A DNA stretch of 64,000 nt from Chthoniobacterales bacterium (GTDB lineage Bacteria; Verrucomicrobiota; Verrucomicrobiia; Chthoniobacterales; JAATET01). The stretch is taken from NCBI GenBank assembly GCA_015655545.1, contig JAATET010000071.1, positions 2,526-66,525 of the forward strand. The letters run 5' to 3'. The translations under genes and the position numbers were made by a program. Positions within the stretch are counted from its first letter, which is position 1; each line of letters starts with the position of its first letter. Of the stretch, positions 30,544 to 58,845 are shown piece after piece. Below the pieces are notes generated by a model, which saw only the letters and a program-made list of their open reading frames with translations, had not been told where the DNA came from and did not search any database.

Positions 30544-31712
30544 GATCGGACACGCGTTTCCAGCAGACGCGAAAAAATCGCCGCGTGGCGATCCACCCAC
30601 CGCGTGCGATCGAAATGAATCGCCGCGTGGGCGCGAGCCGCGCGCGCGAACCCGCCATGCCTTCCCATGATATCGACGACCCCGTCCGCCATCCGCCCCG
30701 CGTCCGGTGCATGATCGCGCAGCCAGTCATCGGGCACATCGACTAGCCGCCCCGCCGCTTCCGGAACCAGCTCCGGCATTCCCCCGCTGCGGGAGGCGAC
30801 CACCGGCACGCCGCAAGCCATCGCCTCGATCGGCACCGTGGGACACGGATCTTTGTATTTCGGATGCAGCAGCACATGGGCCTGTCGGTAGAGGCCGGGC
30901 GCTTCCGCCTGCGTAAATCGTGGCAGCAGCCTTACGTGATCGCGCAGTTTTTGTTTCGCGATGTATTCCGCCACCTCGCGATCGCCGTGCTCCCAGCGAA
31001 ACTCCCCGGCAATGGTCAGCCGAACCGACATTCCGCGTCCGATCAACGCCCGCAGCGTGTCCAGCGACGACTTCACGCGGTAGAATGCGTGATTCGTCCC
31101 CATGGCGAGCAGCTGCCAGACATTGAGCGGAAGAGGCTCCGCAATCGGCGAGAATCGATCCGTATCCACGGGATTCCACAAAATCTCCGCCGGCACATCG
31201 ACCGCGCCCAGATAACGGTCCGCGCACCGCCGGCAAAAATCGCTTTGATAGACAACGTGATCCGCCCGCGCAATCAAGCGCCGCATCGATTCGTTGAACC
31301 AGGGATAACTCGCACCGCACCACGCCGGATACGCGACACCGTTTTGATTCCACACGATGGCCGCACCATTCCGCTTTGCCCAATCCACCAACTCCCCGGC
31401 GTGCGGCACGAGATGCAGCACACTACTGACGAGGTAGAGAACATTGAATCCCTCGCGAGCCTCGCCAAATCGCTCGCGCAAATGCGACAGCTTCACCCCG
31501 CCGCCAATGCGCGTCTCCCGCGCGCGCGCCGGCTCGTCGATCCAGCCGAAATTCAGCCGGACGCCGTCCGGCCACGAAGCTTTCGCCGATTTTTCCAGAC
31601 GCCGCCCAAATGCGATGCGCCCCGGAGCATGGTAGGCGCGCCGTGCCGCCGCCACGGCATCATTGCGCGCCCGCAGCCATGCGGAGACCGGCTCCACGAT
31701 TTTCACTCCCAT
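30540..31712 (-). CDS. Glycosyltransferase family 4 (GT-B)
   Basis: 'VLLHPKYKDPCPTVPIEAMACGVPVVASRSGGMPELV'. The start is either ATG 31712 or GTG 31706 (a GTGA overlap giving 'VKIVEP'). Confidence 0.8.
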   Translation of the reverse strand: MGVKIVEPVSAWLRARNDAVAAARRAYHAPGRIAFGRRLEKSAKASWPDGVRLNFGWIDEPARARETRIGGGVKLSHLRERFGEAREGFNVLYLVSSVLHLVPHAGELVDWAKRNGAAIVWNQNGVAYPAWCGASYPWFNESMRRLIARADHVVYQSDFCRRCADRYLGAVDVPAEILWNPVDTDRFSPIAEPLPLNVWQLLAMGTNHAFYRVKSSLDTLRALIGRGMSVRLTIAGEFRWEHGDREVAEYIAKQKLRDHVRLLPRFTQAEAPGLYRQAHVLLHPKYKDPCPTVPIEAMACGVPVVASRSGGMPELVPEAAGRLVDVPDDWLRDHAPDAGRMADGVVDIMGRHGGFARAARAHAAIHFDRTRWVDRHAAIFSRLLETRVRS

Positions 31713-32515
31713 GGAAAATCCCGGCCCAGCAGGTCGGCGAGCTCCTTGTTTCGCGGCGCAAAGAAATCCCGCAATTCCCGCTCCGTGTCAGCAGGCATCG
31801 CCTCGGCGTAGCAACCGTCCCGCGCTTTCGGCAACTCGGGAGCACCCGTGGCCGGCAGGCCGATATGCCGAAAAACCGCGGGCATGGCCGTGTGCGGAGC
31901 AGTCAATAACTCCTCGCTCACGACAAAGAGGCACTGTTCGCGCGGAAAAACGGAAAGCCACCTTTCGATCGCTCGCGCATACCAGCCACAAAGCACGTAT
32001 CGGGCGGGATGATGGGCCTGCCGTGCCGCGGCATCGACCAGCGGAAGCACCGCGGGATCGTCGAGCCAGCTCATCGCGCTCCGAACCGTCGCGGAAAAAT
32101 CCGCGGAGTCGCTGCCGAACTTGCGGAACATCTGGTAGTCCGACCACGCCCGCTTGACCGGATCGCGCAGCAAAAAAATCAATCTCGCCTCGGGAACGAC
32201 ATCCCGCACATTTTGCGGTCCCCGCGGATCGGCGAAATATTCCACGCTGCCGTCTCCGACAATGAAGCGCTGCCCCGGCAAACGAATCGGATAATTCATC
32301 GCCGCCCGCAAGCGGCTGCCGGGAAAATGCAGGAAATTGGTCGGCTCCTTGCGCGCGCCCCGGCGGACGCCGGGCAGCCCGGCCAGATAATCGTAGAGCG
32401 TCGAGGTGCCGCATTTTGGGGCGCCGGCGATCACAAAGGAAGGCAGCGGCCGCAGGGGCGCCGTGGCGAGTCTCCATGCTTTTTCGAGCTCGAAGCGCAA
32501 ATCGGGTTTCGTCAC
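31703..32515 (-). CDS. Sulfotransferase (Sulfotransfer_1/3-like, HS-sulfotransferase-like)
   Basis: 5'-PSB loop 'VIAGAPKCGTSTLYDYL', 'KEPTNFLHF' and 3'-PB 'IFLLRDPVKRAWSDY'. The GTG at 32515 forms GTGA with the upstream stop. The ATG at 32569 would overlap the upstream gene by 58 nt. Confidence 0.8.
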   Translation of the reverse strand: MTKPDLRFELEKAWRLATAPLRPLPSFVIAGAPKCGTSTLYDYLAGLPGVRRGARKEPTNFLHFPGSRLRAAMNYPIRLPGQRFIVGDGSVEYFADPRGPQNVRDVVPEARLIFLLRDPVKRAWSDYQMFRKFGSDSADFSATVRSAMSWLDDPAVLPLVDAAARQAHHPARYVLCGWYARAIERWLSVFPREQCLFVVSEELLTAPHTAMPAVFRHIGLPATGAPELPKARDGCYAEAMPADTERELRDFFAPRNKELADLLGRDFPWE

Positions 32516-33615
32516 AAGTCGATTTCCTTTCGCATGCGGTTCGCCATTTTGCCGCAGACCGACTCCCACGTGAAGCGCTCGTTCGCCAATTTGCGTCCGG
32601 CTTCGCCGAATTCACGGCGCAATTCCGGCGAATTGAGCAACTGCACAAGGCGGCCCGCAAGCTCCGTCGACTCGCAAAGAAATCCGCTGACCCCATGCTC
32701 GACCCGCTCCGGATTTCCGCCCACGGCCGTGGCCACGACGGGCAGCCCGTGGGAAGCCGCCTCGGCCAGCACGGAAGCGGAGGGATCCGTGCGGCTGGGC
32801 AGACAAAAAACATCGGCCTCACGATAACATTCCGCCACCCGCTCCGGCGCCAGCCGACCGCGCACCCAGACGCCCGGCTCGGCCAAAACCGGAGAGCAAC
32901 CGACGATCCAAAGTCCGGCATCGGGCACCACCGCGCGCACCTCGCGAAAAGCCTCGATCAACTCCGGTCCGCCTTTTCGCTCCCAGTCCACGCCGACGAA
33001 CAAAATGACGTGTCCTTTCCGATTTCCGAAATCGCCGCCGGCGACATTCGAGCCGGAGAACACGACCTCCACGCGCTCTTCCGGCACGCCATAATATTCG
33101 CGTAAAGATTCCGCGGCGAAGCGACTCGACACGAAGGTGCAACGCGCACCCGCATACAAATCGCGCTCCATCCGCCGCCAGGCTTCGGCGACCGGCAACA
33201 AAGGCTTCGGCTGCGGATAGCGCCTGTTGGCGAGATATGTGTGATCGGTATAGATAAAATGCGGCAACTCCGGATGACGGGCATCGAAGAGCGACTGCGT
33301 CTGGAAAATCATGGCGGTGCCCGACGGATCGACATGCGAGCGCACCCAGCTCCGCACCGCCTCGATCACCACCGGCATGCGCGAGAAAAAATCCCGGGGC
33401 GGCTGCCGATTCGCAAGGATGAGATTTCCGTAACGCCGCATCGCCCCAGCCGTCGCGCGCACCCGCAGCGCAAGGTTTGTCCTCACGATCTCCCTCTCCA
33501 CATCGACGATCCGCCACTCGAGATCGTCGAACCGTGCCCGCAAGCCGGCGAAGACCGCGTCATTGATGAGCGAAAACTCTCCGATGCGAAAAAAAAACGC
33601 GCACCGTTTTTTCAT
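32512..33615 (-). CDS. Glycosyltransferase family 4 (GT-B)
   Basis: The ATG at 33615 (ATGA overlap) gives '[14 protein letters not shown]'. Also 'VFCLPSRTDPSASVLAEAASHGLPVVATAVGGNPERV'. Confidence 0.8.
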   Translation of the reverse strand: MKKRCAFFFRIGEFSLINDAVFAGLRARFDDLEWRIVDVEREIVRTNLALRVRATAGAMRRYGNLILANRQPPRDFFSRMPVVIEAVRSWVRSHVDPSGTAMIFQTQSLFDARHPELPHFIYTDHTYLANRRYPQPKPLLPVAEAWRRMERDLYAGARCTFVSSRFAAESLREYYGVPEERVEVVFSGSNVAGGDFGNRKGHVILFVGVDWERKGGPELIEAFREVRAVVPDAGLWIVGCSPVLAEPGVWVRGRLAPERVAECYREADVFCLPSRTDPSASVLAEAASHGLPVVATAVGGNPERVEHGVSGFLCESTELAGRLVQLLNSPELRREFGEAGRKLANERFTWESVCGKMANRMRKEIDL

Positions 33616-34721
33616 TTCGCGTGCGCCATTTTTTCGATCCACGCGGCATGCTGCCGCGCCACGACGCCGGTTTCGTAATGCAGCCTCACGACCTCAAAAG
33701 CCGCGGCTCCCGACGCGCGCAATCGCGAAGGATCCGACAGGAAATTTTCGAAAGCGCTTTTCCATTCTTCGTTGGTTCGACAAATCGCGACAGCTCCGTT
33801 TTTGGAACGATCGGCCAGATCCAGATAGCTGGGAACCGGACTCGCGATCGCCGGCAATTCACACGCCATCCCGAGCGAGATTTTCCACTCGGTGTGCGAA
33901 AGATTATACGGCACGTCGAGAAAACGCGGAGAGACGATGACGCCGCCGCCCGCATACAGGCCCAGCAGATGGCGGATATCGCGAAACCGATGCAGGGTAT
34001 GCGGCACACGCGCGAGCAGATGCTCCAAGCGCTCCCGCACGGCCGCCGGCCAGCGCGACTTCGCTTTCTCGACCTCGTCGGTGACGAGCTGGAGATGGAT
34101 GCGATCCGCCAGCGCGAGAAAGGTGTCCTCCGCGGCCAGGAATTCAAAAAGCTTTGCAGCCATGCCGCTCCACCAGACTTGCAAGCGGCCCTCGCGAAAC
34201 GGCTCCGTCTGCACGGCGGCTGGGCGCAGGCTAAGATTCACGTTGTCGGGAATCCAGGCGGTTCGGGGATTGAATGCCTTGCAGACTTCGGCCAGATGCC
34301 ACGATGACGCGATGACCCCGCGCGCCGATTGAGTCATGGCCACGGCGTCCTCTCGCTGTTCGGCGCCCGGGGCCATCGCGTCCAGCGGCGGCTCGCCTTC
34401 GAAGCGCGTGTAGTAATCGACGTTCGCCTCGAAAAGAACACACGTCCCCGCCGCGCAAAGACGGCTGGCCAGCGACAGACAATGCCCACCCATGGATTTC
34501 AGAAAAACGACGGCGGCGTATCCGCGCCACGGGCGATAGAGCTCATAGCGCCAATCGGATCCGGATTTTTCCAAGGCTTCCGCAATCCAGCGGAAACGCA
34601 TGAAGCTCATCGGCGATCCGGCGTCATCCCAGCCAGACACGAGTGCATGTGGCGGCATGCCTTTCCGCACCGAAGCCAGCTCCGGCACGCGGCTGTTGAT
34701 GATGAATCCTACGCGTTTCAC
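33612..34721 (-). CDS. Uncharacterised protein, possible divergent GT-B glycosyltransferase
   Basis: The GTG at 34721 (GTGA overlap) gives 'VKRVGFIINSRVPELASV'. The C-terminal 'VSPRFLDVPYNLSHTEWKISLGMACELPAIASPVPSY' loosely resembles a GT-B donor-binding half. I recognise no confident family. Confidence 0.45.
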   Translation of the reverse strand: MKRVGFIINSRVPELASVRKGMPPHALVSGWDDAGSPMSFMRFRWIAEALEKSGSDWRYELYRPWRGYAAVVFLKSMGGHCLSLASRLCAAGTCVLFEANVDYYTRFEGEPPLDAMAPGAEQREDAVAMTQSARGVIASSWHLAEVCKAFNPRTAWIPDNVNLSLRPAAVQTEPFREGRLQVWWSGMAAKLFEFLAAEDTFLALADRIHLQLVTDEVEKAKSRWPAAVRERLEHLLARVPHTLHRFRDIRHLLGLYAGGGVIVSPRFLDVPYNLSHTEWKISLGMACELPAIASPVPSYLDLADRSKNGAVAICRTNEEWKSAFENFLSDPSRLRASGAAAFEVVRLHYETGVVARQHAAWIEKMAHAK

Positions 34722-35515
34722 GGGCGCGTGGCAAGGAAGGGCGCGATCGATTCCGTGACCATCGGACCGCGCGCATACTTTTCTTCCTTCCAACTTGCAG
34801 CCGACTTTCCGCCCAGCGCGGAGCGGAAACGCGAAAGCAGCTTTTCGATGCTCCATGCGTGACGGTCCATGATATTGAGCCGGGACTGGGAGTTTCCAGC
34901 ATCCCGCGACGATCGATCGAGAAAGCAAAGATGCAGGCAGCGAAAATCGGCTTCGTCCCAGCTTGATTGGTCGTGGAGGTTCAGACGCAACGAAGCGTCG
35001 AAGCCGGAGCGAAAACGGATATCGCCGCCGTGGAGACGCTCCACGGTTCTCCCGTCCCACGACTCGATGGCAGCGAAGTTGTAGAGCTTCGTCATGCTGC
35101 GGCAAGGGGGAGCGAGATGACCGTCGGCTTGCGCGGCGGCGAGGTCGAGACGCTTTACGTTGAGCACATTTCCGAAGAGCGCCCACCAGCGGGCGAATTC
35201 TCCCGCGGCGATGCGCAGCCGCAGCCGCGCGAGCGCGGAGGAGTCATATACTTCATCGCCATCCACGCCGAAAATCCAAGTCGGGGTTCCCGCGTAAGCC
35301 TGGATCATCTTGTGCGAATCGCCGGATTTGCGGCAGCGGCGCACCACGAGCTTGCGGCCATATTCGCGCGCAAGGCGCCTGAGAATGACCGCGGTCTCGT
35401 CCTGGGATTCGTGATCGCAGACGAAAAACTCGTCGCAGAAATCGATCGCGCTGCGGATCGCCCATTCGACAAACCGATCCTCGTCGCGCACCAGCATGAT
35501 GCCGACGATCTTCAC
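34718..35515 (-). CDS. GT2-like glycosyltransferase (Glyco_tranf_2_4-like)
   Basis: The GTG at 35515 (GTGA overlap) gives 'VKIVGIMLVRDEDRFVEWAIRSAIDFCDEFFVCDHESQDETAVIL'. Also 'IFGVDGDEVYD'. This matches the pattern of PF13704-type GT-A proteins. Confidence 0.6.
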   Translation of the reverse strand: MKIVGIMLVRDEDRFVEWAIRSAIDFCDEFFVCDHESQDETAVILRRLAREYGRKLVVRRCRKSGDSHKMIQAYAGTPTWIFGVDGDEVYDSSALARLRLRIAAGEFARWWALFGNVLNVKRLDLAAAQADGHLAPPCRSMTKLYNFAAIESWDGRTVERLHGGDIRFRSGFDASLRLNLHDQSSWDEADFRCLHLCFLDRSSRDAGNSQSRLNIMDRHAWSIEKLLSRFRSALGGKSAASWKEEKYARGPMVTESIAPFLATRP

Positions 35516-36387
35516 TCCAGCGGCATGTTTTCGAGCGTCTCGATCCAATCGTTGCGCCGGCCAACCATGAAAAGAAAAAGCGCGTTGGGATTGATGGCCC
35601 CTTTGCGCATGAGTCCGCTCCAGATGAGAGGATATGGGCCGTGGTAATAGTGATGGACGCCGAGGATGCGCTCGTCGACCGCGGCGCGCGCCTGCTTGCC
35701 GGCGATCTGCCGCACCGCGTAACGATACAAATCGGTCGAGGCTTTCAGCCATTCGAACCTCGTGGGAAAAGGCTTCGCGGACTTCGAGCGGCCCTCGATG
35801 CGATAGCTGTGGGACGTGAGTGACTCCGGAAGACCGGAGTCCGTCGCGCCGCCCTTGCGCTCGAAAGCCCAGGGCGTGTGCTCCGCTTCGGGCAGCGTCG
35901 CGATCAGGTGATCGAGAATGTCCCGCAGCGCGTCGAGCCGCCACAGGGCCGGATGAAGCGGAAATTTCCAGAGGTTGGACGTGATGCAGAGATCGAGATC
36001 CCAATCTTTCCACCGCCGGGGTTTTCCCATGGGCTCGCGGCCCTGCCCCCAGCCGGAAAGCGAGATACTCACCGCCTGGAGTTCGCGCATCATGGCGGGG
36101 AGTGTTTCATTAAGATGCGGCGCGTGACAGGTCCCCAGCGGCGGATGGTCGTCGAGGATGAGGTATGCCTGGGAAAATCCGTCCGCGAGGAGATCCTCGC
36201 ACGCGGAGCGCGTGATTTTCATCCAGTCGCGCGGATCGTCGCGCAGCGGCAGCGCACAAGGGTCGCCGGCGATCCCGCACAGGCGGAGCGGCGGCGCGTC
36301 TTTCCAGAACTCGCGGATGCGCGCGCGCGTAAACTCGGCCAGTGCGCGATATTTCGCACAGGTCGAAATGAGGATGCACGTGTTCAA
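35512..36387 (-). CDS. Hypothetical protein (no family recognised; possible GT-A-like 'YLILDDH')
   Basis: The TTG at 36387 forms TTGA with the upstream stop and gives '(M)LNTCILISTCAKYRALAEF'. It is a 291-aa soluble protein. The coding call rests on tight coupling on both sides and non-repetitive composition. Confidence 0.5.
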   Translation of the reverse strand: MNTCILISTCAKYRALAEFTRARIREFWKDAPPLRLCGIAGDPCALPLRDDPRDWMKITRSACEDLLADGFSQAYLILDDHPPLGTCHAPHLNETLPAMMRELQAVSISLSGWGQGREPMGKPRRWKDWDLDLCITSNLWKFPLHPALWRLDALRDILDHLIATLPEAEHTPWAFERKGGATDSGLPESLTSHSYRIEGRSKSAKPFPTRFEWLKASTDLYRYAVRQIAGKQARAAVDERILGVHHYYHGPYPLIWSGLMRKGAINPNALFLFMVGRRNDWIETLENMPLE

Positions 36388-37364
36388 AGTCTTCCCGATT
36401 CGACGGCCAGCCTCTGGATGGTATCCGCGTAGTCGAGGACCATGCGCTCGCCCGAAGGAAGCTTTTCGAGCAGTTGGTGACGAAGATCTCCGATTCGCTC
36501 GACGGCCTTGCGAATGGCACCCGGCAAATCCTCGCGGAAACCCACGCCATAACGTTCGCCGGCCTCGACGATGCCGCCGCCGTCTTCGTGGTAGAGAAGT
36601 GGAAGGCCGCATTGCGCGCCCTCGACATGGTGCATGCCGCAAGGCTCCCAGCGGGATGCGGTGAGATAGAGGTGACACTCGCGGAGCTTGGCAGCGAGAG
36701 GCTTCCCGGTCATGGGGCCGAATGTTTCCGTCGCCTTCCAGCGAATGTTCGCCGGCCAGCGACCGATGACGCGGAACGCGACGCCGGGAAGATTTCCGGC
36801 GACGATTAATTCGTCGAGCTGTTGATAGACATCGAAGCCTTTGAGCGGATTGTCCGACCAGTGGTGCGTGACGATGCGCACGGTTTCGCCGGGCCCGGGC
36901 ATGTGGTTGCCGATCGGATGATACACGCGCGAGTCGGCGCCATTGTAGATGACCGCCTGGGAAAGGCCCGCGTCGAACCACCGTTCGGTAAAGTAATCGC
37001 GCAACCACTCCGAGATGAAGACGGTGTGATCGGCGAGCGCGTTCGTGCGACGAAGCAGCTCGTCGATATCGTTGGTGCCCTTGCGCTGATCGCACTCGTT
37101 GATGCGGTGGAGAATCGGCACTTGCGGACTGCGATCGCGAAATTTTTCGAGATCCTCCAACCCGAATTTCTTGGCTGGATGGTCGCGACGCGGATCGATC
37201 ACGAGCACGACGTCGGGTTCGCGTTTGAGGTCAAAGACGACGCGCCAGCCGCGGCGCCACATGCAGTTTGCAAGCTGCGAGACGAACGGGCTCGCGCCTC
37301 CCCAGGACGAACGCGCGGGCACGAGGCTGATCGCAAGCGTGGGTTTGAACTTCGAAAAAAACAT
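36384..37364 (-). CDS. Glycosyltransferase family 4 (GT-B)
   Basis: The ATG at 37364 (TGATG junction) gives 'MFFSKFKPTLAISL'. Also 'LYLTASRWEPCGMHHVEGAQCGLPLLYHEDGGGIVE' (EX7E). Confidence 0.75.
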   Translation of the reverse strand: MFFSKFKPTLAISLVPARSSWGGASPFVSQLANCMWRRGWRVVFDLKREPDVVLVIDPRRDHPAKKFGLEDLEKFRDRSPQVPILHRINECDQRKGTNDIDELLRRTNALADHTVFISEWLRDYFTERWFDAGLSQAVIYNGADSRVYHPIGNHMPGPGETVRIVTHHWSDNPLKGFDVYQQLDELIVAGNLPGVAFRVIGRWPANIRWKATETFGPMTGKPLAAKLRECHLYLTASRWEPCGMHHVEGAQCGLPLLYHEDGGGIVEAGERYGVGFREDLPGAIRKAVERIGDLRHQLLEKLPSGERMVLDYADTIQRLAVESGRL

Positions 37365-38449
37365 CAGGAAAGTGAAGCCGCAGAAATCACGGCGCCCAGA
37401 TGGCTGGCAAATGCATCGATGCGGCCATGCTGGAGCGCCGCCTCGCGTGCGGCACGGCCAATGTGTTCGCGTTGCGCGGCGTCGTCCAGCAACTGTTGCA
37501 TCGCGCCGCGCAGCGCGGCGGGTGAAGCCGGATCGACGAGCAGCAGATCGCGTCCGTCTCGAATGTCCGCGCCGATCCACAATCCGCTCGTGCGCGTGAG
37601 CACCACGGGCCGACCGCAGGCCATGGCTTGCAACGCCACACTTTGACCCGACGGCTGAACGGCCTCCTCGAGCGGCACGATGACCATGAGCGCCCGGCGA
37701 TAGAGATCGCGAAGCTCTTCGTCGGTAACGGCGGGAGCATGCCACGAACCGCGCAGGTGCTCGATGTGCGGCGGCAGCGGATCGGGAAGAGGGCGACCGG
37801 TGAGAATTTTTACCGGGATTTTGAGATCGGCCGCCGCGGCGACGAAGGTCGCGTAATCCCGACGGCCATCATTCCCGACCGCCAGGATGAATTCGCGCCC
37901 GGCCGCGGCCGGAGTCCAAAAGGCCGTGTCCACACCGAAGGCATTCGCATGAATGCGGCGTGGATCGACGTCGAATTGACGGACGGTTTGCTCGCGCTCG
38001 GAATCGGCAAAAAGCACGATCTCCTGCGCACGCATGGCGCGACGCGTGGCGCGCCGGCGCGCGGGCGTGAGCGAATAATTGACGTGCCCGCAGTGGATCC
38101 CGACGAGCGGCGCGCGAAAAAATCCCAGCCGCTTCCAAAACGCGAGGGCATTCGCGTGCGAAGTGGAGGCGGCGACCACGGCATCCACCGTCTTCAAACG
38201 GCCCAGACTCGGGATGACCGCCGCCACATGCTCGCCGCGCGTACGCACGGGCGTGCGCGCATTCAGCAATATATTGTAAGCCGTGGCCAGCCACGACGAG
38301 CGTGGATCCGGCGCATCGATGCAGACGACATCGTGGCCGGCCTTCGCGAGCTCGACCGCTCCATAAAAAAAATCGCTCGGAACACGCCCTTCCCGCGCCG
38401 CGGCCCATTTGGCTTCGCGACCTCCCGCATAAACGAAGGCGATCTTCAC
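37364..38449 (-). CDS. Glycosyltransferase family 4 (GT-B)
   Basis: The GTG at 38449 (GTGA overlap) gives 'VKIAFVYAGG'. Also 'MVIVPLEEAVQPSGQSVALQAMACGRPVVLTRTSGL'. Confidence 0.75.
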   Translation of the reverse strand: MKIAFVYAGGREAKWAAAREGRVPSDFFYGAVELAKAGHDVVCIDAPDPRSSWLATAYNILLNARTPVRTRGEHVAAVIPSLGRLKTVDAVVAASTSHANALAFWKRLGFFRAPLVGIHCGHVNYSLTPARRRATRRAMRAQEIVLFADSEREQTVRQFDVDPRRIHANAFGVDTAFWTPAAAGREFILAVGNDGRRDYATFVAAAADLKIPVKILTGRPLPDPLPPHIEHLRGSWHAPAVTDEELRDLYRRALMVIVPLEEAVQPSGQSVALQAMACGRPVVLTRTSGLWIGADIRDGRDLLLVDPASPAALRGAMQQLLDDAAQREHIGRAAREAALQHGRIDAFASHLGAVISAASLS

Positions 38450-40112: not shown

Positions 40113-40118
40113 TTGAGT

Positions 40119-40448
40119 TCAGGGCGTCTTGTGTTCCAGCGCCTGCAATCGTTCGTCAATTTGAATGCTTGCCGCGGTCAGCCCTTTGGCAATTTCAAGC
40201 AGGTTATTCTCGGCCCGTCGCCCGGCTTCGGCATCCTTCCTCGCTAGCACCGCCTGGTGTTTCACTTGCGCCTCGAGTTGACGCAACTCCTCCCGCAGCC
40301 GGGCGTCGGCACCCCGCAGCCGCTGGAGGGATCTCTCCTCGAACTCGCGGAGAGCTTTTAAAACCAACCCGCGCCCGAGAGCCGCGGCGACGATCAGCGT
40401 GAGGACATTTATCGAGACGGCGATGAGAATCGTCACCAATGGACTCAC
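40119..40448 (-). CDS. Small N-terminal TM + coiled-coil protein (module copy A)
   Basis: The GTG at 40448 (GTGA overlap) gives 'VSPLVTILIAVSINVLTLIVAAAL' (TM). A heptad-like Arg/Glu/Leu-rich region follows, ending 'IDERLQALEHK'. The architecture and tail resemble 45006..45308. Confidence 0.55.
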   Translation of the reverse strand: MSPLVTILIAVSINVLTLIVAAALGRGLVLKALREFEERSLQRLRGADARLREELRQLEAQVKHQAVLARKDAEAGRRAENNLLEIAKGLTAASIQIDERLQALEHKTP

Positions 40449-49337: not shown

Positions 49338-49389
49338 GCGCTGAGAAGAGTCCGCGCGCCGGGGACGGAAAAGCAGGCGAATCGGGATT

Positions 49390-50265: not shown

Positions 50266-50304
50266 TTTGATGCGTTTACAACCTCGCGGGTTTCCCCGGA
50301 GAGA

Positions 50305-51885: not shown

Positions 51886-52012
51886 GGTCAAATATCGCTC
51901 CCATGCACGAAGTCTGCGGGCTCAGGACGAGCTGCTGCTTCTACGGAGTCGGCACACATTTGGCAAGGGATTCGCAACGGCGCCGCGAATCGATCGGCAG
52001 GCGGGAGGCTGC

Positions 52013-53650
52013 TCATCGATCGGGTTGGTTGCGCTGAAAAAGGTAGGCGAATTTGCCGGCGCCGTCCGGATACGTGCCGGCCAAATGCCAGGCGGGATCC
52101 GCACGAAAGAGCGCCAGCAATTCCGGCTGTAATTTCTCGGCGGGGATATCGTTTCCTTCCGGCCGGCCACTCAATCCGGGATCCTGCAACAAGACGTAGC
52201 TGGCGTCGCGGGTGAATCGCAGGACTTCCTCACGACGATGCGCGAGAGCGGCACTGATCATGGTGAGTTTACGATTTCGAGCCCGGAACTCGATTTCGAA
52301 ATATTGAGGCACGATCGGATTGGCCTGCGTGACCACCAGCGTCGGATCGTCGTTGGCACCCGAGGCCGCAAGCAGATCGCGGAGGACGCCGTTGTTTACC
52401 GACGTCTGAACTTTTCGTATTTTTTTCGAAACGACGCAGACCGGCGGAAACGAAAAGGCGGTCGCACAAAACGCCAGCACTACACCGGCGAAGACTGCTT
52501 GTCGCCAAAGCGGACGCAGCCATTCACGAGCCCGGGTGCATCGAAGCAGCCGCACGGCATACCACGCGGCGCCGAAGATGAGAAATCCGTAGAACGATCC
52601 TCCCAAATAGGGACTCTTCATCGAAAAAGCCGCGTTCACCACGCAAGTGCCGGCCAGCATCCATAAGAAAGCAGCCGCGCGCAGTCGGACGGCAAGCGTC
52701 TCTCCGCGGGCCAGGTCGACAAGCGATCCCGTCAAAAATATCGCCAGGAGCGGATAGAAGAAATTTCCCAGATTGGAGGCCAGTGCCTTGCCGGGAGCCA
52801 CGTAGTAGGTGAGTTGGTCCCAAAGCGAGCCGTGGAATTCCCAGACTTCGCGGTTGTCTCCGAAGCTGTTGACGAAAAAGTAATCGAAAATTTCGCGACC
52901 GTGCTGCACCCAATACCAGCCCGCCACGGCCATGGCACTCGCGATCGCAAGGGCGAGTCGAATCCCCAAGTCACGAAAGGAAACACCGCCGGTCAAGAGC
53001 GCGATCGCCGCGGAGAGAAACCACGTGCCCCCCATGACCAGCAGCGTCATGGCGAAGGTCGAAGGCTTGATGAGCAGCACCAGGCCGACTGCCACTCCAA
53101 AGGCGACCGCGAAAAGTTTCCGCTCGAAGGGCCGTTCGCTCGCGAGCAGCAGCGTGCAGCTTCCACCGAGCACCACGGCCCACATCATATCGGGCCGGAA
53201 CTGCTGCGCGCACATCGTCGCGAAAGGAAACGCCAGCGTGCCGATGACAAGAGCGGCTTTGATCAACGGCGGCAGCGACCGGGTGATAGCCGCGACGAAA
53301 GCGAGCAGGGCGAACACAACCAACGCGAGTACATAATAGGCGCGCTCGACACTGGGGCCGAAAAGCAGGAAGCCGAAGACCCCCGCGAAGACGGGAAACG
53401 GCGCGTGAAGATTCTGGGTCAGCAGCGCGCCTGCGGCCGCGACGGCGCCTTGATTCGCGCCGAGGAAATAGATTTCCGACGCCTTGTTGAAATAAACGAC
53501 ATCGTCGTAGTTCGTAATCGTCGAGAGACGGCCAATTTCTTTCGACGTCTTAAGACTCGCCGCGGTGAAAAGTGCGGCGCAGCAAAGCAAAATCAACCCT
53601 CCGGTCAACGCCGGCCCGAGATGCCAAAGACTATTTCGACAGCTGCCCAT
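52013..53650 (-). CDS. Polytopic membrane protein, GT-C-like (ArnT/PMT-family-like) putative glycosyltransferase
   Basis: About 12 hydrophobic segments. The first loop carries 'NYDDVVYFNKASE' (a DxxxY-type acidic motif as in GT-C enzymes). A ~140-aa soluble C-terminal domain follows. I prefer the ATG at 53650 over the TTG at 53668. Confidence 0.55.
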   Translation of the reverse strand: MGSCRNSLWHLGPALTGGLILLCCAALFTAASLKTSKEIGRLSTITNYDDVVYFNKASEIYFLGANQGAVAAAGALLTQNLHAPFPVFAGVFGFLLFGPSVERAYYVLALVVFALLAFVAAITRSLPPLIKAALVIGTLAFPFATMCAQQFRPDMMWAVVLGGSCTLLLASERPFERKLFAVAFGVAVGLVLLIKPSTFAMTLLVMGGTWFLSAAIALLTGGVSFRDLGIRLALAIASAMAVAGWYWVQHGREIFDYFFVNSFGDNREVWEFHGSLWDQLTYYVAPGKALASNLGNFFYPLLAIFLTGSLVDLARGETLAVRLRAAAFLWMLAGTCVVNAAFSMKSPYLGGSFYGFLIFGAAWYAVRLLRCTRAREWLRPLWRQAVFAGVVLAFCATAFSFPPVCVVSKKIRKVQTSVNNGVLRDLLAASGANDDPTLVVTQANPIVPQYFEIEFRARNRKLTMISAALAHRREEVLRFTRDASYVLLQDPGLSGRPEGNDIPAEKLQPELLALFRADPAWHLAGTYPDGAGKFAYLFQRNQPDR

Positions 53651-53684
53651 GAGGAGGTTCCGCGACAATCGACACCGCAGGCCT

Positions 53685-55505
53685 TTATGGGACGTGCGTC
53701 GCGCTGGTGGAGTCCCCGGGCGGCTGGGCGACGTAGAGCCAGAATTTTTCGCCGAAGTCCTCGGGGCCGCGAATCAATTTCCACCCGCGTGCTTCCGCGC
53801 TGGCGATGAATTCCTGCACCTTGGGGAATTTTGACTCGTAGGGGGGAATGATCAAATAGCGCACGTCCCTCTGCTTGAGCGCGGCATCGAGCGAATCCGC
53901 CGGAGCGAGTTTCTGGATCAGCGCCATCGTGTCGACAAACCGCTTTTCGATGATCTGGCCGCCGAATCCGAAATAGGAATTCAGCTCAAACGGGTAGCCC
54001 CCCGTGCCCGCCTTCCCTTCTTCACGACTCAGCAATTGGCGGTAAGGCTCCAACAATCGAAAATTCGAGAGCAGTGGCCGCGCTCCCATCGTGCGAGGAC
54101 GAAGCGCTTTTTTGGACTTCACATTTTTGGGGTTCGGCATCAATCGTGCCTCCACATAATAGCGGGGTGTCAGGAAAGCCGCCGCCAGCATCGCGACAAT
54201 CGCAACTTTCCGACAAACCGGACAAACCGCCCGCGCTCTCGGCAAATAATACAGTAGCACCTGCAATGAAAAACCCGCGAGCCACATGAGCGCCAGGCTT
54301 TGCGCGAACATATAGGACGGGCGCGGACGCTGCATGATCATCACGACGCACACCGTCGAGCAGACGGACAGGATCGCGAAGATCACCCAGGCGCGACGCG
54401 CCAGCCAATAGTCCCACCAGAATCGAAAATTTCTCGCCACCAGCACGACACCGCACGCGACGAGAGCGAGATAAGCCGCGCTCAATGAGAGCGCCAGGGG
54501 CTTGTTCACCGCCGTGCTCGCGTAGTCGGGATTGTCGGCGCCGGCGCGGCAGTTGAACAAGGCCACTTGCAATCCACTGGGAATGAGCTGCGCGTTCCAC
54601 CAGAAGTGCTCGAACATCGCCTTGGGATTCGCCTGGATGGCCTCTCGCATCGTGGGCAGCTCGTTGCCGAAATCGCGAACCATCAAAGGCGCATATCCGA
54701 CCCACGGATCGTCGGTATATTCCGGATGACGCTGGCTGTATCCGAAGCAATAGATTTGGGAAATATTCAGCGTGTGCTTGCCCTTGAGTTCAATATCCAG
54801 GGCGGGATATTTGACATTCGATCGCCAATAAAAGAGGCCAATAATCAAGCACGCCACCGCCACGGGGACCACATACGCGGCCAGATAGCGCACGGGACGA
54901 AACGCGGCCTGTTTTCGCCAGATTTGCCAGATGTCGAATGCGACCGACACAACCGTAAACGTCCCGAGAACGAGCAGCATCTCGTTGCGGACGAGAATCG
55001 TCGTGACGGCGAGCAGCCCGATGCAGATGCCCCGCATCCACAAGGACGGTCGCATGGCCAGCAGGAGCCAGAAAATCAAAATGGGGATCAGCGCAAAAAG
55101 GTGAACCTCGTAGAGCGCGTTGAAATTGATCGGAAGCAACAGCCACCACGCCGTGATGAACCAGGCAATGGTGGGAACCAAAAGCCGTCGCGATACTTCG
55201 AAGATCAGCACGGTCAGGATCGCAAGAATTCCAATTCGATGCGCGATCAGGACGACGAAAGGATCTCCACTGAACCAATGAAATGCTCCGAAGTAACTCG
55301 TGTAGAGCGGCGACCAGGCGATGTTGCAAGTAAGGTGGCGGGCGAAATCCAGTGCGGTCGGATAATACGAGCTCGTGTCGCCCGTCGTCATATCCCGAAT
55401 GTCCCACATTCCCCAGATCGTCCGGAGAAACAGCACGGCGAGCAGCAGATATTGCCAGAAAAGCGGGGACCGGTAAAACGCCGGGCCGCGTGGAGGAGTC
55501 GTCAT
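53685..55505 (-). CDS. Polytopic membrane protein, GT-C-like putative glycosyltransferase or polymerase
   Basis: The ATG at 55505 (ATGA overlap) gives 'MTTPPRGPAFYRSPLFWQYLLLAVLFL'. Early loop 'TTGDTSSYYPTALDF'. At least 12 hydrophobic segments and a ~150-aa soluble tail. Confidence 0.5.
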   Translation of the reverse strand: MTTPPRGPAFYRSPLFWQYLLLAVLFLRTIWGMWDIRDMTTGDTSSYYPTALDFARHLTCNIAWSPLYTSYFGAFHWFSGDPFVVLIAHRIGILAILTVLIFEVSRRLLVPTIAWFITAWWLLLPINFNALYEVHLFALIPILIFWLLLAMRPSLWMRGICIGLLAVTTILVRNEMLLVLGTFTVVSVAFDIWQIWRKQAAFRPVRYLAAYVVPVAVACLIIGLFYWRSNVKYPALDIELKGKHTLNISQIYCFGYSQRHPEYTDDPWVGYAPLMVRDFGNELPTMREAIQANPKAMFEHFWWNAQLIPSGLQVALFNCRAGADNPDYASTAVNKPLALSLSAAYLALVACGVVLVARNFRFWWDYWLARRAWVIFAILSVCSTVCVVMIMQRPRPSYMFAQSLALMWLAGFSLQVLLYYLPRARAVCPVCRKVAIVAMLAAAFLTPRYYVEARLMPNPKNVKSKKALRPRTMGARPLLSNFRLLEPYRQLLSREEGKAGTGGYPFELNSYFGFGGQIIEKRFVDTMALIQKLAPADSLDAALKQRDVRYLIIPPYESKFPKVQEFIASAEARGWKLIRGPEDFGEKFWLYVAQPPGDSTSATHVP

Positions 55506-56608
55506 GTCGAAGACCTTTGAAATTTTTGCCGGATCAGCGCCGCGACCTTCCGGGCCTGGCTCCATTTTACGGAGAGATACAATCGGATCATGCGCGGCAG
55601 CGAACGGTGGATTCGGGCGTAGGCACCGATGTCGCGTCGCAGTGCGATCACCTTTTCGCGGGTCGAACGGACTTCATCCTCGAGGAGGACGACTCGAGCC
55701 TTGAATTTGTCGCCACGCTCCGTCGCCGCGCGGATGCGCTCGTCGCGGCGCGCGAAATAAATTTTGTGCATCTCGAGGCGGTCGAAAAATTGCTGGTAGC
55801 GCCTCCGCAGCGCGACGAGCCATCCGCGCAAAATCTCACGCTCCTCATCGGGCAGCATCGCCGCCTCCAGCGCCTCGGTGCCGCGCCGAAACATATCGTC
55901 AAACTGCGTGATCTCGACCGCCGGCGCGAAGCCGCCGAAAGGCTCCTTTGCATGCACGATAAATTGCGACACCGCCCGCGCGGTCACCGCGACGCGCGCC
56001 GCGAGGCTATGCGAAATCATCCAGGCGGAATCCGCGCAATGCCCCCATCCTTCCGGGAACGGGTGGCCGGCCAGAAACGCGGTGCGGTAAAGATTCCCCG
56101 CGCTGCTGCCGAGCAAAGTTTCCGGCACGAAGCTCACCGCGAGCCGGAAGACATCGGCGGGCGCCAGCCGTCGCGGTTCCGCGGAGGGAAGATTTTCCGT
56201 GATCGAATGAATCGGCCAGCGACCGGGCGGAAGCGCGACGCCGCGGTCGTCGAGCATGGCCGGCGGAGAAATCAGGATGTCCGCATCCGCAGCCCGGATC
56301 GCGGCGAGCAAATGCTGCAATCCCGGAAAATCGATCGTATCGCCGACCGTCGAAAAATAGACAAACTCCTCGCGCGCCTGCCGCACGCCGAAGTTCCATC
56401 CTTCGTAAAGCCCGCGCGGACGCGAGTGGAACTCGACATTCGAAAGCGCGATCTCGGCGCGCAGATAATCCAGCGTGCCGTCCTCCGAGCTATCCACGAC
56501 CACGACCTGCGCAACGTGCGGCAGCCACTCGCGAATGGCGCGGATGTGGGGCTCGATCGCGCCCATCGCATTGCGCGTGGGCAGGATGGCAGTGATCGGC
56601 AAAGTCAT
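55502..56608 (-). CDS. Glycosyltransferase family 2 with a C-terminal coiled-coil extension
   Basis: 'ITAILPTRNAMGAIEPHIRAI', 'VVVDSSEDGTLDYL' and 'YFSTVGDTI'. The last ~110 aa are helical and charged ('RVVLLEDEVRSTREKVIALRRDI'). Confidence 0.75.
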   Translation of the reverse strand: MTLPITAILPTRNAMGAIEPHIRAIREWLPHVAQVVVVDSSEDGTLDYLRAEIALSNVEFHSRPRGLYEGWNFGVRQAREEFVYFSTVGDTIDFPGLQHLLAAIRAADADILISPPAMLDDRGVALPPGRWPIHSITENLPSAEPRRLAPADVFRLAVSFVPETLLGSSAGNLYRTAFLAGHPFPEGWGHCADSAWMISHSLAARVAVTARAVSQFIVHAKEPFGGFAPAVEITQFDDMFRRGTEALEAAMLPDEEREILRGWLVALRRRYQQFFDRLEMHKIYFARRDERIRAATERGDKFKARVVLLEDEVRSTREKVIALRRDIGAYARIHRSLPRMIRLYLSVKWSQARKVAALIRQKFQRSST

Positions 56609-58062
56609 CTTTTCGACGGGAGACCGGCCACTCTCCGCAGTTCCTCGACCACGCGCATTCGCAATGGCTTCGCCTTTTCACGATAAAATTTTTCGAGCGC
56701 TCCCTGCGTTTCCTCCTTGGCCGCGCGCAGCCGTTCTTCCAGGCCGCGCCGGCTCTCCGCCGCTTTTTCGCGCGTTTCCTGGAGTTTTCGAGCGGCCTCT
56801 TCTTCGCGGGTGCGAAGGCGCGCTTCGTTTTGAGTGAGACGCCGATTCTGGCTCTCGAGGTAATCGATGTAGGTCAAAGGATTCGTCTTCAGTTCATCGA
56901 TCGGATCGACCCATTTCGAGCGAGCCCGGCCTTTCGTCCGAAATTCCGCCGAGACCAGCACGCAAAAATCAATCAGGCCGCTCGCCCATTGCCGGCCGCG
57001 CTCCCGCTCCGCCTGGAGACTTGTCTGCTCGACCGCTTCGCCCAGCCAGCCGCCGCCGGACCAATCTTGCGCCGCGAGGTGCGCGGCCAGCGGCGAGGCA
57101 TCATCGGGCGGAAAGAAGAAGGCGGCGGGCGCTTGCTCGCGATGGGTCGCGATATCGGAACAGGCAACGGATTTCCCGAGCGCGAGCGCATCCTGCACCG
57201 TGGTGTTCCAGCCTTCGAATTCCGACGGCTGGATGATCTCCGTCGCACTTCGCAAAATCGCCACCAGATCGGAAAACGGCACCTCCCCGAGGACGCTGAT
57301 GTTCTCGAAAAGCTTTTCGGTCGTGAGCCGCCGGACGATTTCCGAGAGATGTGGATTGGCGACATCCCGTGAGTCGGAAAGCATGCCCACCATCACGACA
57401 TGCACCTTGGGGTTTATCTTCCTGGCCTGCGCGACCGCCTCGACGACCAAACGGTGGTTTTTGTGCTTCCAAAATTGATTGGCCACGAGCGCGAAGGCTT
57501 CGGGAAGGTTGTATTTTTGCCTCACCGCGCCTGGATCGCCCTTGATGAGCCCCGCATCGCTCGCGAACGACGAACAAAAATGCACCGCATCGCTCGGGCC
57601 GGAAAAACCGGGATAAAACACGCGGAAATCGGCGCGCACCGCCTCGCTGGAAAACATCATCGCATCGCAATTTCCAATGAGGTAACCGAAATGCCGGTCC
57701 CGCTGGGCGCGCTGGGCTTCCGTAAAATATTTCTGAAGATGCCGGTGCTGGAAATCGGGAATCCAGCCGATCAACGCGCAATCGGTGTCGGGCAGCAACG
57801 CCTCGGTCACCGGCAGCAATACGTCGATGCGCTCGTCCTTCACGATTTGCCGCACTTGAGCCGGAGCCAGATCCGGCGTCTCCGCGCAGATCGTGCGGAC
57901 GCCCGGCGGCAGCGCAGCCAGCGAACTCCGCGTTCCGCTCACGACGCAGATTTCGCAGCGTTCGTCCGCTGCACTCGCCAGGGCATGCACCATGCTGCGC
58001 GAGTAGCTCGCGCCCGCGGTCCAGCTCGGATCGGAGCGATCCAAAAATCCGATTCTGATCAT
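56605..58062 (-). CDS. Glycosyltransferase family 4 with a C-terminal coiled-coil extension
   Basis: 'FALVANQFWKHKNH', 'IIQPSEFEGWNTTVQDALALGKSVACSD' (EX7E) and the tail 'LESQNRRLTQNEARLRTREEEAARKLQETREKAAESRRGLEERLRAAKEE'. Confidence 0.8.
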   Translation of the reverse strand: MIRIGFLDRSDPSWTAGASYSRSMVHALASAADERCEICVVSGTRSSLAALPPGVRTICAETPDLAPAQVRQIVKDERIDVLLPVTEALLPDTDCALIGWIPDFQHRHLQKYFTEAQRAQRDRHFGYLIGNCDAMMFSSEAVRADFRVFYPGFSGPSDAVHFCSSFASDAGLIKGDPGAVRQKYNLPEAFALVANQFWKHKNHRLVVEAVAQARKINPKVHVVMVGMLSDSRDVANPHLSEIVRRLTTEKLFENISVLGEVPFSDLVAILRSATEIIQPSEFEGWNTTVQDALALGKSVACSDIATHREQAPAAFFFPPDDASPLAAHLAAQDWSGGGWLGEAVEQTSLQAERERGRQWASGLIDFCVLVSAEFRTKGRARSKWVDPIDELKTNPLTYIDYLESQNRRLTQNEARLRTREEEAARKLQETREKAAESRRGLEERLRAAKEETQGALEKFYREKAKPLRMRVVEELRRVAGLPSKR

Positions 58063-58125
58063 CGTGAAGTCCCAACCCGCCAGCCGCCCGTGGCAACGAA
58101 TGCTCCGAGGCGGAACTCGCCGCAG

Positions 58126-58845
58126 CTAATAAAGAACTTCATCGAGAATGAGATAAATCCCCTCTTCCGCCTCGACTTGATCGATCCTCGCCGCCTGCTC
58201 CGCGCTGAGATGACGCTGCCAGTCGCCCATGATGCCTTTGCGGAAAAAGCGTTTTTCTTCCGGCACGGTCGCGCCGCTGAGCTTGGAAAACTGGGTGTTC
58301 TGCCGCGCTTCGCGGATTTGCAGCTTCGTCAGCGTTCGCCCCAAAAAACGTCCAAGCCGGAAAAGCTCGTCATCGAAGACGGTGTGCAGCTTTTGATAAG
58401 TCGTGAAGAATATCCGATCCTCGACGCCGCGGTTGTCCCAATACAAATGATAGCGCGTCAGCGCGCGGACCAGATTCTCGCCGCGCTTGGCGAAGAACTC
58501 ATCCATCGTGCCCACAAAATGTCCGAGCCGCTTGAAATGATAGTAGGCGGACACCACCACGTCCTTCGGGTCGCGATAGATATTGAGGATCTTTACCCCC
58601 GGCTCCGCGAGAAGCAGCGGGCGCATTTCATCCTCGGGCTTGAAGTGCGCCTTGATGAGGTAGTCGTTCGTCTCGATATCCGCGACGCGTAGAAACTCAG
58701 GCATCCGCCGCGGCTCGATCGTGTTGTTTTTCCACGACTCGTTTTTAAATTCCGCCGGCACTTCCAACACGGCACCGAGCTGCCGGACGATCAACGTCAG
58801 CCAGGTCGAGCCGCTTTTGAACGCGCCGTTGCTTACGATCAACAT
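58126..58845 (-). CDS. Sulfotransferase (Sulfotransfer_1, cytosolic-type)
   Basis: 5'-PSB 'GAFKSGSTWL', 3'-PB 'IYRDPKDVVVSAYYH' and the C-terminal 'FFRKGIMGDWQRHL'. Confidence 0.85.
   Translation of the reverse strand: MLIVSNGAFKSGSTWLTLIVRQLGAVLEVPAEFKNESWKNNTIEPRRMPEFLRVADIETNDYLIKAHFKPEDEMRPLLLAEPGVKILNIYRDPKDVVVSAYYHFKRLGHFVGTMDEFFAKRGENLVRALTRYHLYWDNRGVEDRIFFTTYQKLHTVFDDELFRLGRFLGRTLTKLQIREARQNTQFSKLSGATVPEEKRFFRKGIMGDWQRHLSAEQAARIDQVEAEEGIYLILDEVLY

Follow-up and report, generated by a model that had tools for sequence, protein, structure and literature searches.

Four sulfotransferase-type genes in one glycan operon

The stretch of DNA analysed here (the window, 64,000 nt) belongs to contig JAATET010000071.1 of the Chthoniobacterales bacterium assembly GCA_015655545.1, and more than half of it is occupied by a glycan operon with four genes for proteins of the sulfotransferase type, designated ST-A to ST-D (Table 1). 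An earlier note on this DNA had listed four such open reading frames (ORFs), and all of them were recovered on the minus strand exactly where the note had placed them, with the peptides it quoted present in the translations. Scanning of every ORF with hidden Markov models (HMMs) gave exactly these four in the window. They fall into three sequence classes, namely a 3-OST/NDST-like protein with a Glu base (ST-A), a SULT-like protein with a His base (ST-D) and two NKWYS paralogues (ST-B and ST-C); the note was right that there is more than one type, while the two types it distinguished became three. All four proteins keep every conserved residue, and none of them is matched by any NCBIfam model.

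The G+C content of the window is about 62%. From 27.6 kb to the window end, the coding capacity is essentially all on the minus strand, with tightly packed and often overlapping genes, and the operon spans at least 36 kb inside the window and about 45 kb when its part beyond the window end is included. The gene for an ABC-2 permease of the Wzm type, whose orthologue in the related contig L004 matches PF01061 (ABC2_membrane), is complemented by a gene for a 464-aa ABC_tran ATPase located upstream, outside the window. Pfam scans of the window genes gave no match to Polysacc_synt or Wzy_C, so that the gene set is the one expected of the Wzm/Wzt pathway without Wzx/Wzy. The region is best explained as the core of a long one-strand operon for an ABC-transporter-dependent (Wzm/Wzt) surface polysaccharide, and the whole reading developed below appears to us more probable than its competitors taken together. 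The host is a soil-type Verrucomicrobium of the Chthoniobacterales/Terrimicrobiaceae-like kind.

Table 1. Positions of the sulfotransferase-type genes, their partners and other features of the window.
Feature	Position	Strand	Evidence or remark
ST-A, 3-OST/NDST-like sulfotransferase, 270 aa	31703..32515	-	Sulfotransfer_1 + Sulfotransfer_3
ST-D, compact SULT-like sulfotransferase, 239 aa, directly downstream of wzm	58126..58845	-	Sulfotransfer_1
ST-B, NKWYS protein, probable divergent sulfotransferase, 282 aa	40445..41293	-	PF10364 E 1.5e-10, 41.6 bits
ST-C, NKWYS protein, probable divergent sulfotransferase, 300 aa	48435..49337	-	PF10364 E 3.4e-17, 63.1 bits
1056-aa partner of ST-C	45313..48483	-	N-terminal 410-aa CstII/GT42-like (sialyltransferase-fold) domain + weak GT-B-like C-terminal part
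635-aa partner of ST-B, same GT42-like domain	41290..43197	-	Window copy broken by two in-frame stops
Single-strand glycan operon holding all four sulfotransferase genes	27651..64000	-	Packed/overlapping genes; runs past window end
Wzm-type ABC-2 permease	58865..59734	-	NCBIfam galactan_ABC_perm (Wzm/RfbD) E 2e-9, below curated cut-off
CMP-ulosonic-acid synthetase + Kdn-9-P/KdsC-type phosphatase fusion	62558..63796	-	Pfam CTP_transf_3 + HAD
Polysialyltransferase-like (PF07388) glycosyltransferase, 438 aa	61194..62510	-	Pfam A-2_8-polyST E 7e-8
Hexapeptide acetyltransferase	60499-61173	-	In operon
Methyltransf_24	59748-60494	-	In operon
GT1 with long C-terminal tail	56605-58062	-	Right after ST-D
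GT2 with long C-terminal tail	55502-56608	-	Follows the GT1 gene
Polytopic membrane protein, 606 aa	53685-55505	-	No Pfam match
Polytopic membrane protein, ~545 aa	52013-53650	-	No Pfam match
GT2-methyltransferase	50305-51891	-	In operon
RmlA	49390-50265	-	In operon
109-aa protein after ST-B	40119-40448	-	N-terminal hydrophobic segment
Beta-helix pectate-lyase-like protein, last operon gene	27651-28469	-	PF03211 E 9e-18; N-terminal hydrophobic segment
mcsA-like (UVR), mcsB (ATP:guanido phosphotransferase), clpC	23377-27471	+	Outside the operon
KsgA-type rRNA adenine dimethylase + NUDIX	12002-13363	+	PF00398; single ORF

The two canonical sulfotransferases

Both ST-A and ST-D exceeded the Sulfotransfer_1 gathering cut-off of 22 bits, with E-values of 6.6e-13 (49.1 bits) and 2.6e-27 (96.3 bits), respectively, and ST-A additionally matched Sulfotransfer_3 (E 2.3e-10, 42 bits). 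The best solved relatives of ST-A were 3-OST-3 (1t8t, E 7e-14), the bacterial sulfotransferase 3rnl and the sulfotransferase domain of NDST1. In the alignment of ST-A with 3-OST-3, the Lys of the 5'-phosphosulfate-binding (PSB) loop (PKCGT and KKGGT, respectively), the catalytic Glu (KEPTNF and AEPHFF) and the 3'-phosphate-binding (3'-PB) element (RDPVKRAWSDY and RDPVTRAISDY) all correspond. Likewise, KSGSTW of ST-D was aligned with KSGTTW of 8xgz and SULT1E1 (1g3m), and its further correspondence with the solved SULTs included the catalytic His (IKAHF and VKTHL), the segments RDPKDVVVSAYY and RNAKDVAVSFYY, with RDPKDVVVS as the 3'-PB element, and RKGIMGDW with RKGITGDW. By every test that a sequence allows, ST-A and ST-D are sulfotransferases, and the earlier note had correctly assigned them to the Sulfotransfer_1 type: both lie above the Pfam threshold, and the PSB Lys, the 3'-PB Arg/Ser and the catalytic base align with solved structures. 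On their own, these two enzymes are ordinary. The idea that the gene behind wzm, ST-D, is in fact a wrongly read Wzt ATPase was considered and ruled out, since this protein clearly belongs to Sulfotransfer_1 and Wzt is encoded upstream.

The NKWYS paralogues and their family

ST-B and ST-C are 45% identical. PF10364 (NKWYS) is the only Pfam family that matches them, restricted to their C-terminal halves (residues ~143-276), and both scores are above its gathering threshold of 25.1 bits. In Pfam, this family is described as a "putative capsular polysaccharide synthesis protein" with no activity assigned, and a literature search on NKWYS/PF10364 found nothing relevant. The family is large: a word-indexed search returned 577 matches and an exhaustive one 6,189 cluster representatives (50% identity) at E<=1e-3, whereby the members belonged to Planctomycetota, Verrucomicrobiota, Cyanobacteria, Chloroflexota, Proteobacteria and Bacteroidota and included several cultured strains, among them Thiohalobacter thiocyanaticus, Bauldia litoralis, Desulfobulbus alkaliphilus and Winogradskyella tangerina. 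About ten of the best family matches were tandem NKWYS-NKWYS proteins of 540-580 aa.

Comparison of 40 diverse homologues showed no variation in GKVGS (residues 11-15 of ST-C), H35, R91 and P93, and hardly any at S99; ST-B, too, has the GKVGS, His, R-D-P and Ser that are typical of the family. The AlphaFold2 (AF2) model of ST-C (pLDDT 92.3) starts with strand 1, the GKVGS loop, a helix and strand 2 ending in H35, followed by strand 3, the RDP motif, a helix with S99 and a later hairpin with LLLLRIEDL. In SULT structures, the PSB loop is followed by the catalytic His, the 3'-PB element and the YEDL strand, and in the predicted model the corresponding elements of ST-C stand in the same order.

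Are the NKWYS proteins sulfotransferases?

An important question is whether the NKWYS family, as a domain with no assigned activity, can be placed among the sulfotransferases. Several lines of evidence, each of them modest and all pointing in one direction, make it likely that the NKWYS proteins are indeed sulfotransferases. The first is the motif pattern. The NKWYS loop reads K-x-G-S-[ST], with the Lys before the Gly as in the PSB loops of sulfotransferases, and differs from the Walker A motif G-x4-G-K-[ST]. Next, at the appropriate distance, come R-[DE]-P…S and a YEDL-like strand, both in register with the canonical sulfotransferases. In a relaxed Pfam scan of 40 NKWYS members, Sulfotransfer_2 gave sub-threshold matches in 19 (best E 1.9e-4) and Sulfotransfer_1 matched four, while no non-sulfotransferase family recurred. 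Moreover, two multidomain members contain, directly ahead of their NKWYS match, a segment whose Sulfotransfer_2 score (24.6 and 23.2 bits) lies above the cut-off of 22.

Profile comparisons gave a similar picture. The top five matches of the NKWYS profile among the PDB sequences were heparan-sulfate 3-O-sulfotransferases (E 0.012-0.76). A canonical set was assembled from 36 sulfotransferase ORFs of the fetched loci and checked with Pfam (32/36 with PF00685 and 26/36 with PF13469), and hhalign of the NKWYS profile against the alignment of this set resulted in E 8.6e-5 with a probability of 60%. After trimming, 158 columns were aligned at E 1.3e-4, and PSB, 3'-PB and YEDL…FLG were in register. 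Iterative HMM training drifted into NKWYS as soon as NKWYS sequences were part of the training set, and it was repeated without them. The resulting canonical-only HMM matched 22 NKWYS ORFs at E<=1e-3, seven of them at E<=1e-5 (8,270 ORFs), with the alignments in register. In a Foldseek search of the PDB, the four best matches of the ST-C model were HS6ST (twice), SULT1C2 and SULT1C1, all of them weak.

The genomic surroundings of the family point to sulfation as well. A canonical sulfotransferase is located within 10 kb of NKWYS in 18 of the 80 GTDB loci. In one Caldilineaceae genome, the gene right after three Sulfotransfer_1/3 genes and a sulfatase gene encodes an NKWYS protein, and another contig has NKWYS with three canonical sulfotransferases around it, within a polysaccharide cluster of the Wzx/Wzy type. 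Natural fusions were found with the composition Sulfotransfer_3 + NKWYS + MptE-like + TPR, Sulfotransfer_3 + WbsX + RgpF + NKWYS, Sulfotransfer_3 + TPR + NKWYS, and GT1 (a glycosyltransferase, GT) with two NKWYS domains. A 1,251-aa frame of an Anaerolineales metagenome-assembled genome (MAG; L021:8312-12064) combines a canonical sulfotransferase, a segment that looks MptE-like by eye (GNGPSL…GVDHN, unscored) and NKWYS. As a group, the multidomain proteins P0347, P0408, P0399, P0277 and P0278 and the Anaerolineales frame join Sulfotransfer_1/3, MptE-like, NKWYS, glycosyltransferase, methyltransferase and TPR domains.

Several results weigh against this assignment. Neither ST-B nor ST-C is significant against Sulfotransfer_2 (12.4 bits and E 0.18 for ST-C, with a cut-off of 22) or against the canonical-sulfotransferase HMM (E 3 and 20), and their link to the canonical enzymes is transitive because the significant matches come through other family members. 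The hhalign probabilities with the canonical set were 54-60% only, and the Foldseek matches of the ST-C model had E-values of 0.06-0.14 and TM <0.3. A phmmer search of the PDB sequences with ST-C gave nothing, even at E 10. Single sequences (ST-A, ST-D or HS2ST) were reached by the NKWYS profile in hhalign with E 0.015-0.12 only, and a low-diversity HS2ST alignment with E 0.0044 and a probability of 8%; the HS2ST query was checked against PDB 4ndz/3f5f and aligned with them almost identically (residues 62-356, E 7.7e-198). The comparison with sulfotransferase structures, which located the catalytic and binding residues of ST-A and ST-D, brought for ST-B and ST-C a PDB match of the family profile at E 0.012. 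The two paralogues had been called family-2-like in the earlier note: a Sulfotransfer_2 look is supported by several modest independent lines, whereas formally they belong to PF10364, and ST-C remains well below the Sulfotransfer_2 cut-off.

A rival explanation, which we regard as rather unlikely, is that ST-B and ST-C represent some other P-loop-like transferase, such as a sugar/polymer kinase or phosphotransferase, or a non-catalytic accessory of glycan assembly, so that only ST-A and ST-D sulfate. It gains from the Pfam assignment to a family with no activity, from the position of the window copies below every sulfotransferase threshold, from the nonsignificant Foldseek matches to solved sulfotransferases, and from the lack of enrichment of genes for the synthesis of the sulfate donor 3'-phosphoadenosine-5'-phosphosulfate (PAPS), with cysD + cysNC near NKWYS in only one of the 80 GTDB loci. 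However, a kinase-like P-loop does not agree with the K-x-G-S-[ST] loop, and the R-[DE]-P…S element and YEDL-like strand are in register with the canonical enzymes. The restriction of the recurring low-stringency Pfam matches to sulfotransferases, the two members above the Sulfotransfer_2 cut-off and the recurrence of members beside or fused to canonical sulfotransferases also argue for the assignment of NKWYS to the sulfotransferases. If so, the 5'-phosphosulfate would be bound at the K-x-G-S-[ST] loop and the 3'-phosphate at the R-[DE]-P…S element, and the role of the base would fall to the invariant His in which strand 2 ends.

GT42-like partners of the NKWYS genes

Each NKWYS gene has a large neighbour: ST-C lies immediately upstream of the gene for the 1056-aa protein, and ST-B immediately downstream of the gene for the 635-aa protein, which it overlaps by 4 nt. 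Both large proteins have a 410-aa domain in common (36% identity over 411 aa, E 2e-66), which gave no Pfam match at E<=0.01. It represents a rare sequence family, with 34 relatives in a word-indexed search, and its invariant residues include N210, D231, H235, R246, G328 and G331-R332 (GCDGR motif). With the AF2 model of residues 1-420 of the 1056-aa protein (pLDDT 91), Foldseek returned Campylobacter jejuni CstII and Cst-I at a probability of 0.99-1.0 and TMt 0.45-0.51. The label "GT42-like" stands for this match of a predicted structure only, and membership in the CAZy family is not claimed.

NKWYS and GT42-like genes form a duplicated two-gene module. A related combination, NKWYS + MptE-like, recurs as fusions in other phyla, and MptE-like domains share the fold of the Maf nonulosonate transferases. 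Because of the linkage between NKWYS and GT42-like genes, it is suggested that each NKWYS enzyme sulfates the residue that its partner installs, or a neighbouring one.

The window copy of the 635-aa gene has in-frame stops at 42625-42627 and 41797-41799. The Logan assembly, made from the same sample, has Glu at both codons (G-to-T differences). The two assemblies differ at ten places in all, each time by a single-base substitution, and an intact 681-aa orthologue is present in the related contig L003. The stops seem more likely to be an assembly/consensus error or minor variants than marks of a real pseudogene.

Conservation of the locus

The exact window proteins are present in the Logan assemblies of SRR10968246 and on a 149-kb NCBI contig. 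The same full gene order, including all four sulfotransferases, was found in the ENA contig k141_197214, and the ST-C orthologue in the order-conserving contig is about 65% identical. An ST-A orthologue, also of 270 aa, occupies the matching place in the related contig L088, and the adjacency of wzm and a gene for a 239-aa Sulfotransfer_1 protein is kept in L003, L004 and L008, which include a JGI contig and a Terrimicrobiaceae MAG. The closest GTDB genome is a Terrimicrobiaceae MAG (60% identity), followed by a Chthoniobacterales MAG.

Other genes of the operon and its surroundings

In the order of transcription, the operon starts beyond the window end (L001:4640-9126) with an epimerase/dehydratase, the Wzt-type ABC ATPase, whose C-terminus is considerably extended, a protein of the GT28_C type, which might be PseG-like, and NeuB. 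Inside the window follow the CMP-sugar synthetase-phosphatase fusion, the polysialyltransferase-like GT, the hexapeptide acetyltransferase, a methyltransferase, Wzm and ST-D, then GT1 and GT2 proteins with coiled-coil tails, two large polytopic membrane proteins, the GT2-methyltransferase, RmlA and ST-C. The next genes encode the 1056-aa protein, small ORFs and a GT2, the 635-aa protein and ST-B, and the operon is completed by more GT2/GT4/GT1 proteins, ST-A, further GTs and the beta-helix pectate-lyase-like protein. The number of glycosyltransferases is about 15, including GT1, GT2 and GT4 types.

The synthetase-phosphatase fusion has a PseF-like N-terminus and reached 170.8 bits with the NCBIfam model for the KDN-9-P phosphatase (cut-off 180), and the next gene upstream, already outside the window, is neuB. 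Judging by these genes, the sugar of the nonulosonic-acid branch may be Kdn, Neu5Ac-like or pseudaminic/legionaminic acid (Pse/Leg)-like. The product of the last operon gene could be a periplasmic or extracellular lyase/epimerase acting on an acidic polymer.

Some further features were noticed along the operon. The GT1 and GT2 proteins encoded right after ST-D carry long charged C-terminal tails that look heptad-like by eye (e.g., ...RLRTREEEAARKLQETREKAAESRRGLEERLRAAKEE...); the tails are reminiscent of the coiled-coil "molecular rulers" found in the enzymes that terminate the chains of ABC-dependent O-antigens, a similarity likewise judged by eye. Of the two mid-operon membrane proteins, the 606-aa one is kept in the related contig L003; both may be GT-C-type transferases or ligase-like proteins. 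The small protein encoded after ST-B ends in a coiled-coil-like tail, and a 109-aa protein takes the same position in L003 and L088.

The left 27 kb of the window are ordinary chromosome with genes for GH92, CorA, recA, dxr, cdsA, a hybrid histidine kinase and mcsA-mcsB-clpC. The KsgA-type dimethylase in this part carries a C-terminal NUDIX domain in the same ORF, which looks like an unusual fusion. The arginine-phosphorylation quality control by mcsA-mcsB-clpC is best known from Gram-positive bacteria, and here the trio is present in a verrucomicrobial genome encoding OmpA/TolB.

Proposed pathway and the supply of PAPS

The following scheme is proposed for the locus. The approximately 15 glycosyltransferases would assemble the polymer at the cytoplasmic face, on a lipid carrier. 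Three of them would be sialyltransferase-like and fed by the nonulosonic-acid pathway of NeuB and the CMP-synthetase-phosphatase, and the polymer would also be methylated and acetylated. Before export by Wzm/Wzt, the four enzymes with the presumed PAPS-type sulfotransferase fold would decorate it: ST-A as a 3-OST/NDST-like enzyme with a Glu base, ST-D, always encoded directly after wzm, as a SULT-like enzyme with a His base, and ST-B and ST-C through NKWYS as a divergent Sulfotransfer_2-like domain. They would use PAPS provided by unlinked genes and act at different positions, in keeping with their division into three sequence classes, one of them a pair of paralogues. Directly observed are the family assignments, the conserved residues, the operon structure, the synteny and the domain fusions. 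The use of PAPS, the identity of the acceptors, the action of all four enzymes on one polymer and the sulfation of the product itself are all inferred.

On the negative side of the balance is, in the first place, the supply of PAPS. The earlier note had reported the absence of cysDN/cysC from the window, and this was confirmed: among all plausible genes at positions 1-64000, Pfam recognised none for an ATP sulfurylase, APS kinase or CysQ. PAPS-synthesis genes are likewise absent from the next 9 kb past the window, and their rarity near NKWYS was mentioned above. Since the PAPS-synthesis genes are usually unlinked, their co-localisation neither supports nor refutes the scheme. A second point is that the organism is uncultured and without product chemistry.

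A third point comes from the O-antigen cluster of Aeromonas salmonicida, in which wzt is followed by an uncharacterised ORF with a sulfotransferase domain and then by wbbB, and in the published O-antigen structure there is no sulfate matching this ORF (PMC4483657). Like here, a small sulfotransferase-domain gene adjoins the ABC-transporter genes, a likeness of position. The case lends some weight to a quite improbable alternative in which at least one sulfotransferase, especially ST-D, acts off the polymer on a lipid, a small molecule or a protein-linked glycan, leaving the polymer not multiply sulfated. The closest solved relatives of ST-D are indeed cytosolic small-molecule sulfotransferases, and acceptor specificity is not revealed by sequence. 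Against an off-polymer role stand the embedding of the four genes in one packed glycan operon with overlapping stops and starts, and the conservation of both the wzm-ST-D adjacency and the whole gene order in related contigs.

It is highly improbable that the locus is partly decayed or inactive, with the sulfotransferase genes as relics left by the missing PAPS genes (in the window and the 9 kb beyond) or the broken GT42-like gene, because the two stops read Glu in an independent assembly of the same sample and the assembly differences look like noise, the four sulfotransferases are intact in every conserved residue, and another contig with an intact orthologue shows conservation at about 65% protein identity.

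The polymer-sulfation scheme can be extended by two proposals. Other ABC-dependent O-antigens carry methyl, phosphate or Kdo caps. By analogy, and speculatively, ST-D might cap the chain end with sulfate, and the long C-terminal domain of Wzt would recognise this cap, so that chains are terminated and exported; the two methyltransferases of the operon are equally good candidates for the capping role. To our knowledge, enzymes have been assigned to the O-sulfation of nonulosonic acids only in animals. These animal enzymes, acting on nonulosonic-acid residues, are WSCD1/2 (PMC9304399). In the most far-reaching combination, the NKWYS proteins would be overlooked PAPS-dependent carbohydrate sulfotransferases in a module with CstII/Maf-like nonulosonate transferases, the pairs would install O-sulfated nonulosonic acids (Kdn/sialic-acid-like), and ST-D would cap the chains for Wzt; taken jointly, this is a doubtful proposal, with the odds clearly on the other side.

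Significance and comparison with known systems

A bacterial glycan locus with sulfotransferases is not new in kind. The earlier note had limited bacterial carbohydrate sulfation to a few systems, which proved too narrow, as the literature adds the capsules of Vibrio and Cobetia, both with multi-sulfotransferase polysaccharide clusters, the exopolymers of Pontiella, again encoded by such clusters (PMC7356697), and synechan, whose cluster has two sulfotransferases (PMC8205485). What is new is the presence of four sulfotransferases in one Wzm/Wzt-type verrucomicrobial locus, the recurrent coupling of the NKWYS family to sialyltransferase-fold enzymes, and the evidence by which the widespread PF10364 is probably a divergent sulfotransferase domain. 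The survey of bacterial sulfation in the synechan study counted PF00685, PF03567 and PF13469 only (PMC8205485). If NKWYS is a sulfotransferase family, surveys based on these three models miss it, and the estimated capacity of bacteria for sulfated glycans would be higher. Such a capacity is relevant to the cycling of carbon and sulfur in the sea and in soil, to biofilm matrices and to the microbial production of heparin-like or fucoidan-like polymers. The link of NKWYS to sialyltransferase-fold enzymes also provides a concrete, testable acceptor hypothesis.

Among the individual enzymes, ST-A resembles the 3-OSTs, the NDST domain (1t8t, 1nst) and 3rnl over about 200 residues, sharing the PSB Lys, the catalytic Glu and RDPxxRxxSDY. 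In contrast to 3-OSTs, the second catalytic-site His (EPHFF) is replaced by Thr (EPTNF), and, unlike 3-OST/NDST, ST-A is a bacterial, cytoplasmic protein encoded in an operon of the O-antigen/capsule type. ST-D shares KSGSTW, the His (IKAH), RDPKDVVVSAYY and RKGxxGDW with the cytosolic SULTs (SULT1E1 1g3m, SULT1C 3bfx and 8xgz), but it has only 239 aa, lacks the N-terminal segment and has shorter acceptor loops, and its gene is fixed directly after the Wzm gene. The NKWYS proteins have the K-x-x-S-T-S loop and [IV]RDPxxRxxS in common with Sulfotransfer_2 (PF03567; HS2ST 4ndz and HS6ST 5t05). However, the window copies are below the PF03567 cut-off, the C-terminal half is a separate model (PF10364), and the catalytic His of HS2ST (HGH) is unaligned, an invariant His after strand 2 being found instead, as in SULTs. 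The 410-aa partner domain has a predicted fold that matches Campylobacter CstII/Cst-I (GT42), with about 12% sequence identity and in much larger proteins, and the MptE-like/Maf nonulosonate transferases are related to the module through the natural fusions of NKWYS with MptE-like domains.

Overall, the locus resembles the synechan xss cluster of Synechocystis and the loci of Vibrio KMM 8419, Cobetia and Pontiella, which likewise are glycan clusters with several sulfotransferases of different subfamilies. It differs from them by Wzm/Wzt rather than Wzx/Wzy export, by four sulfotransferases, two of which are from PF10364, and by the addition of a nonulosonic-acid pathway and GT42-like transferases.

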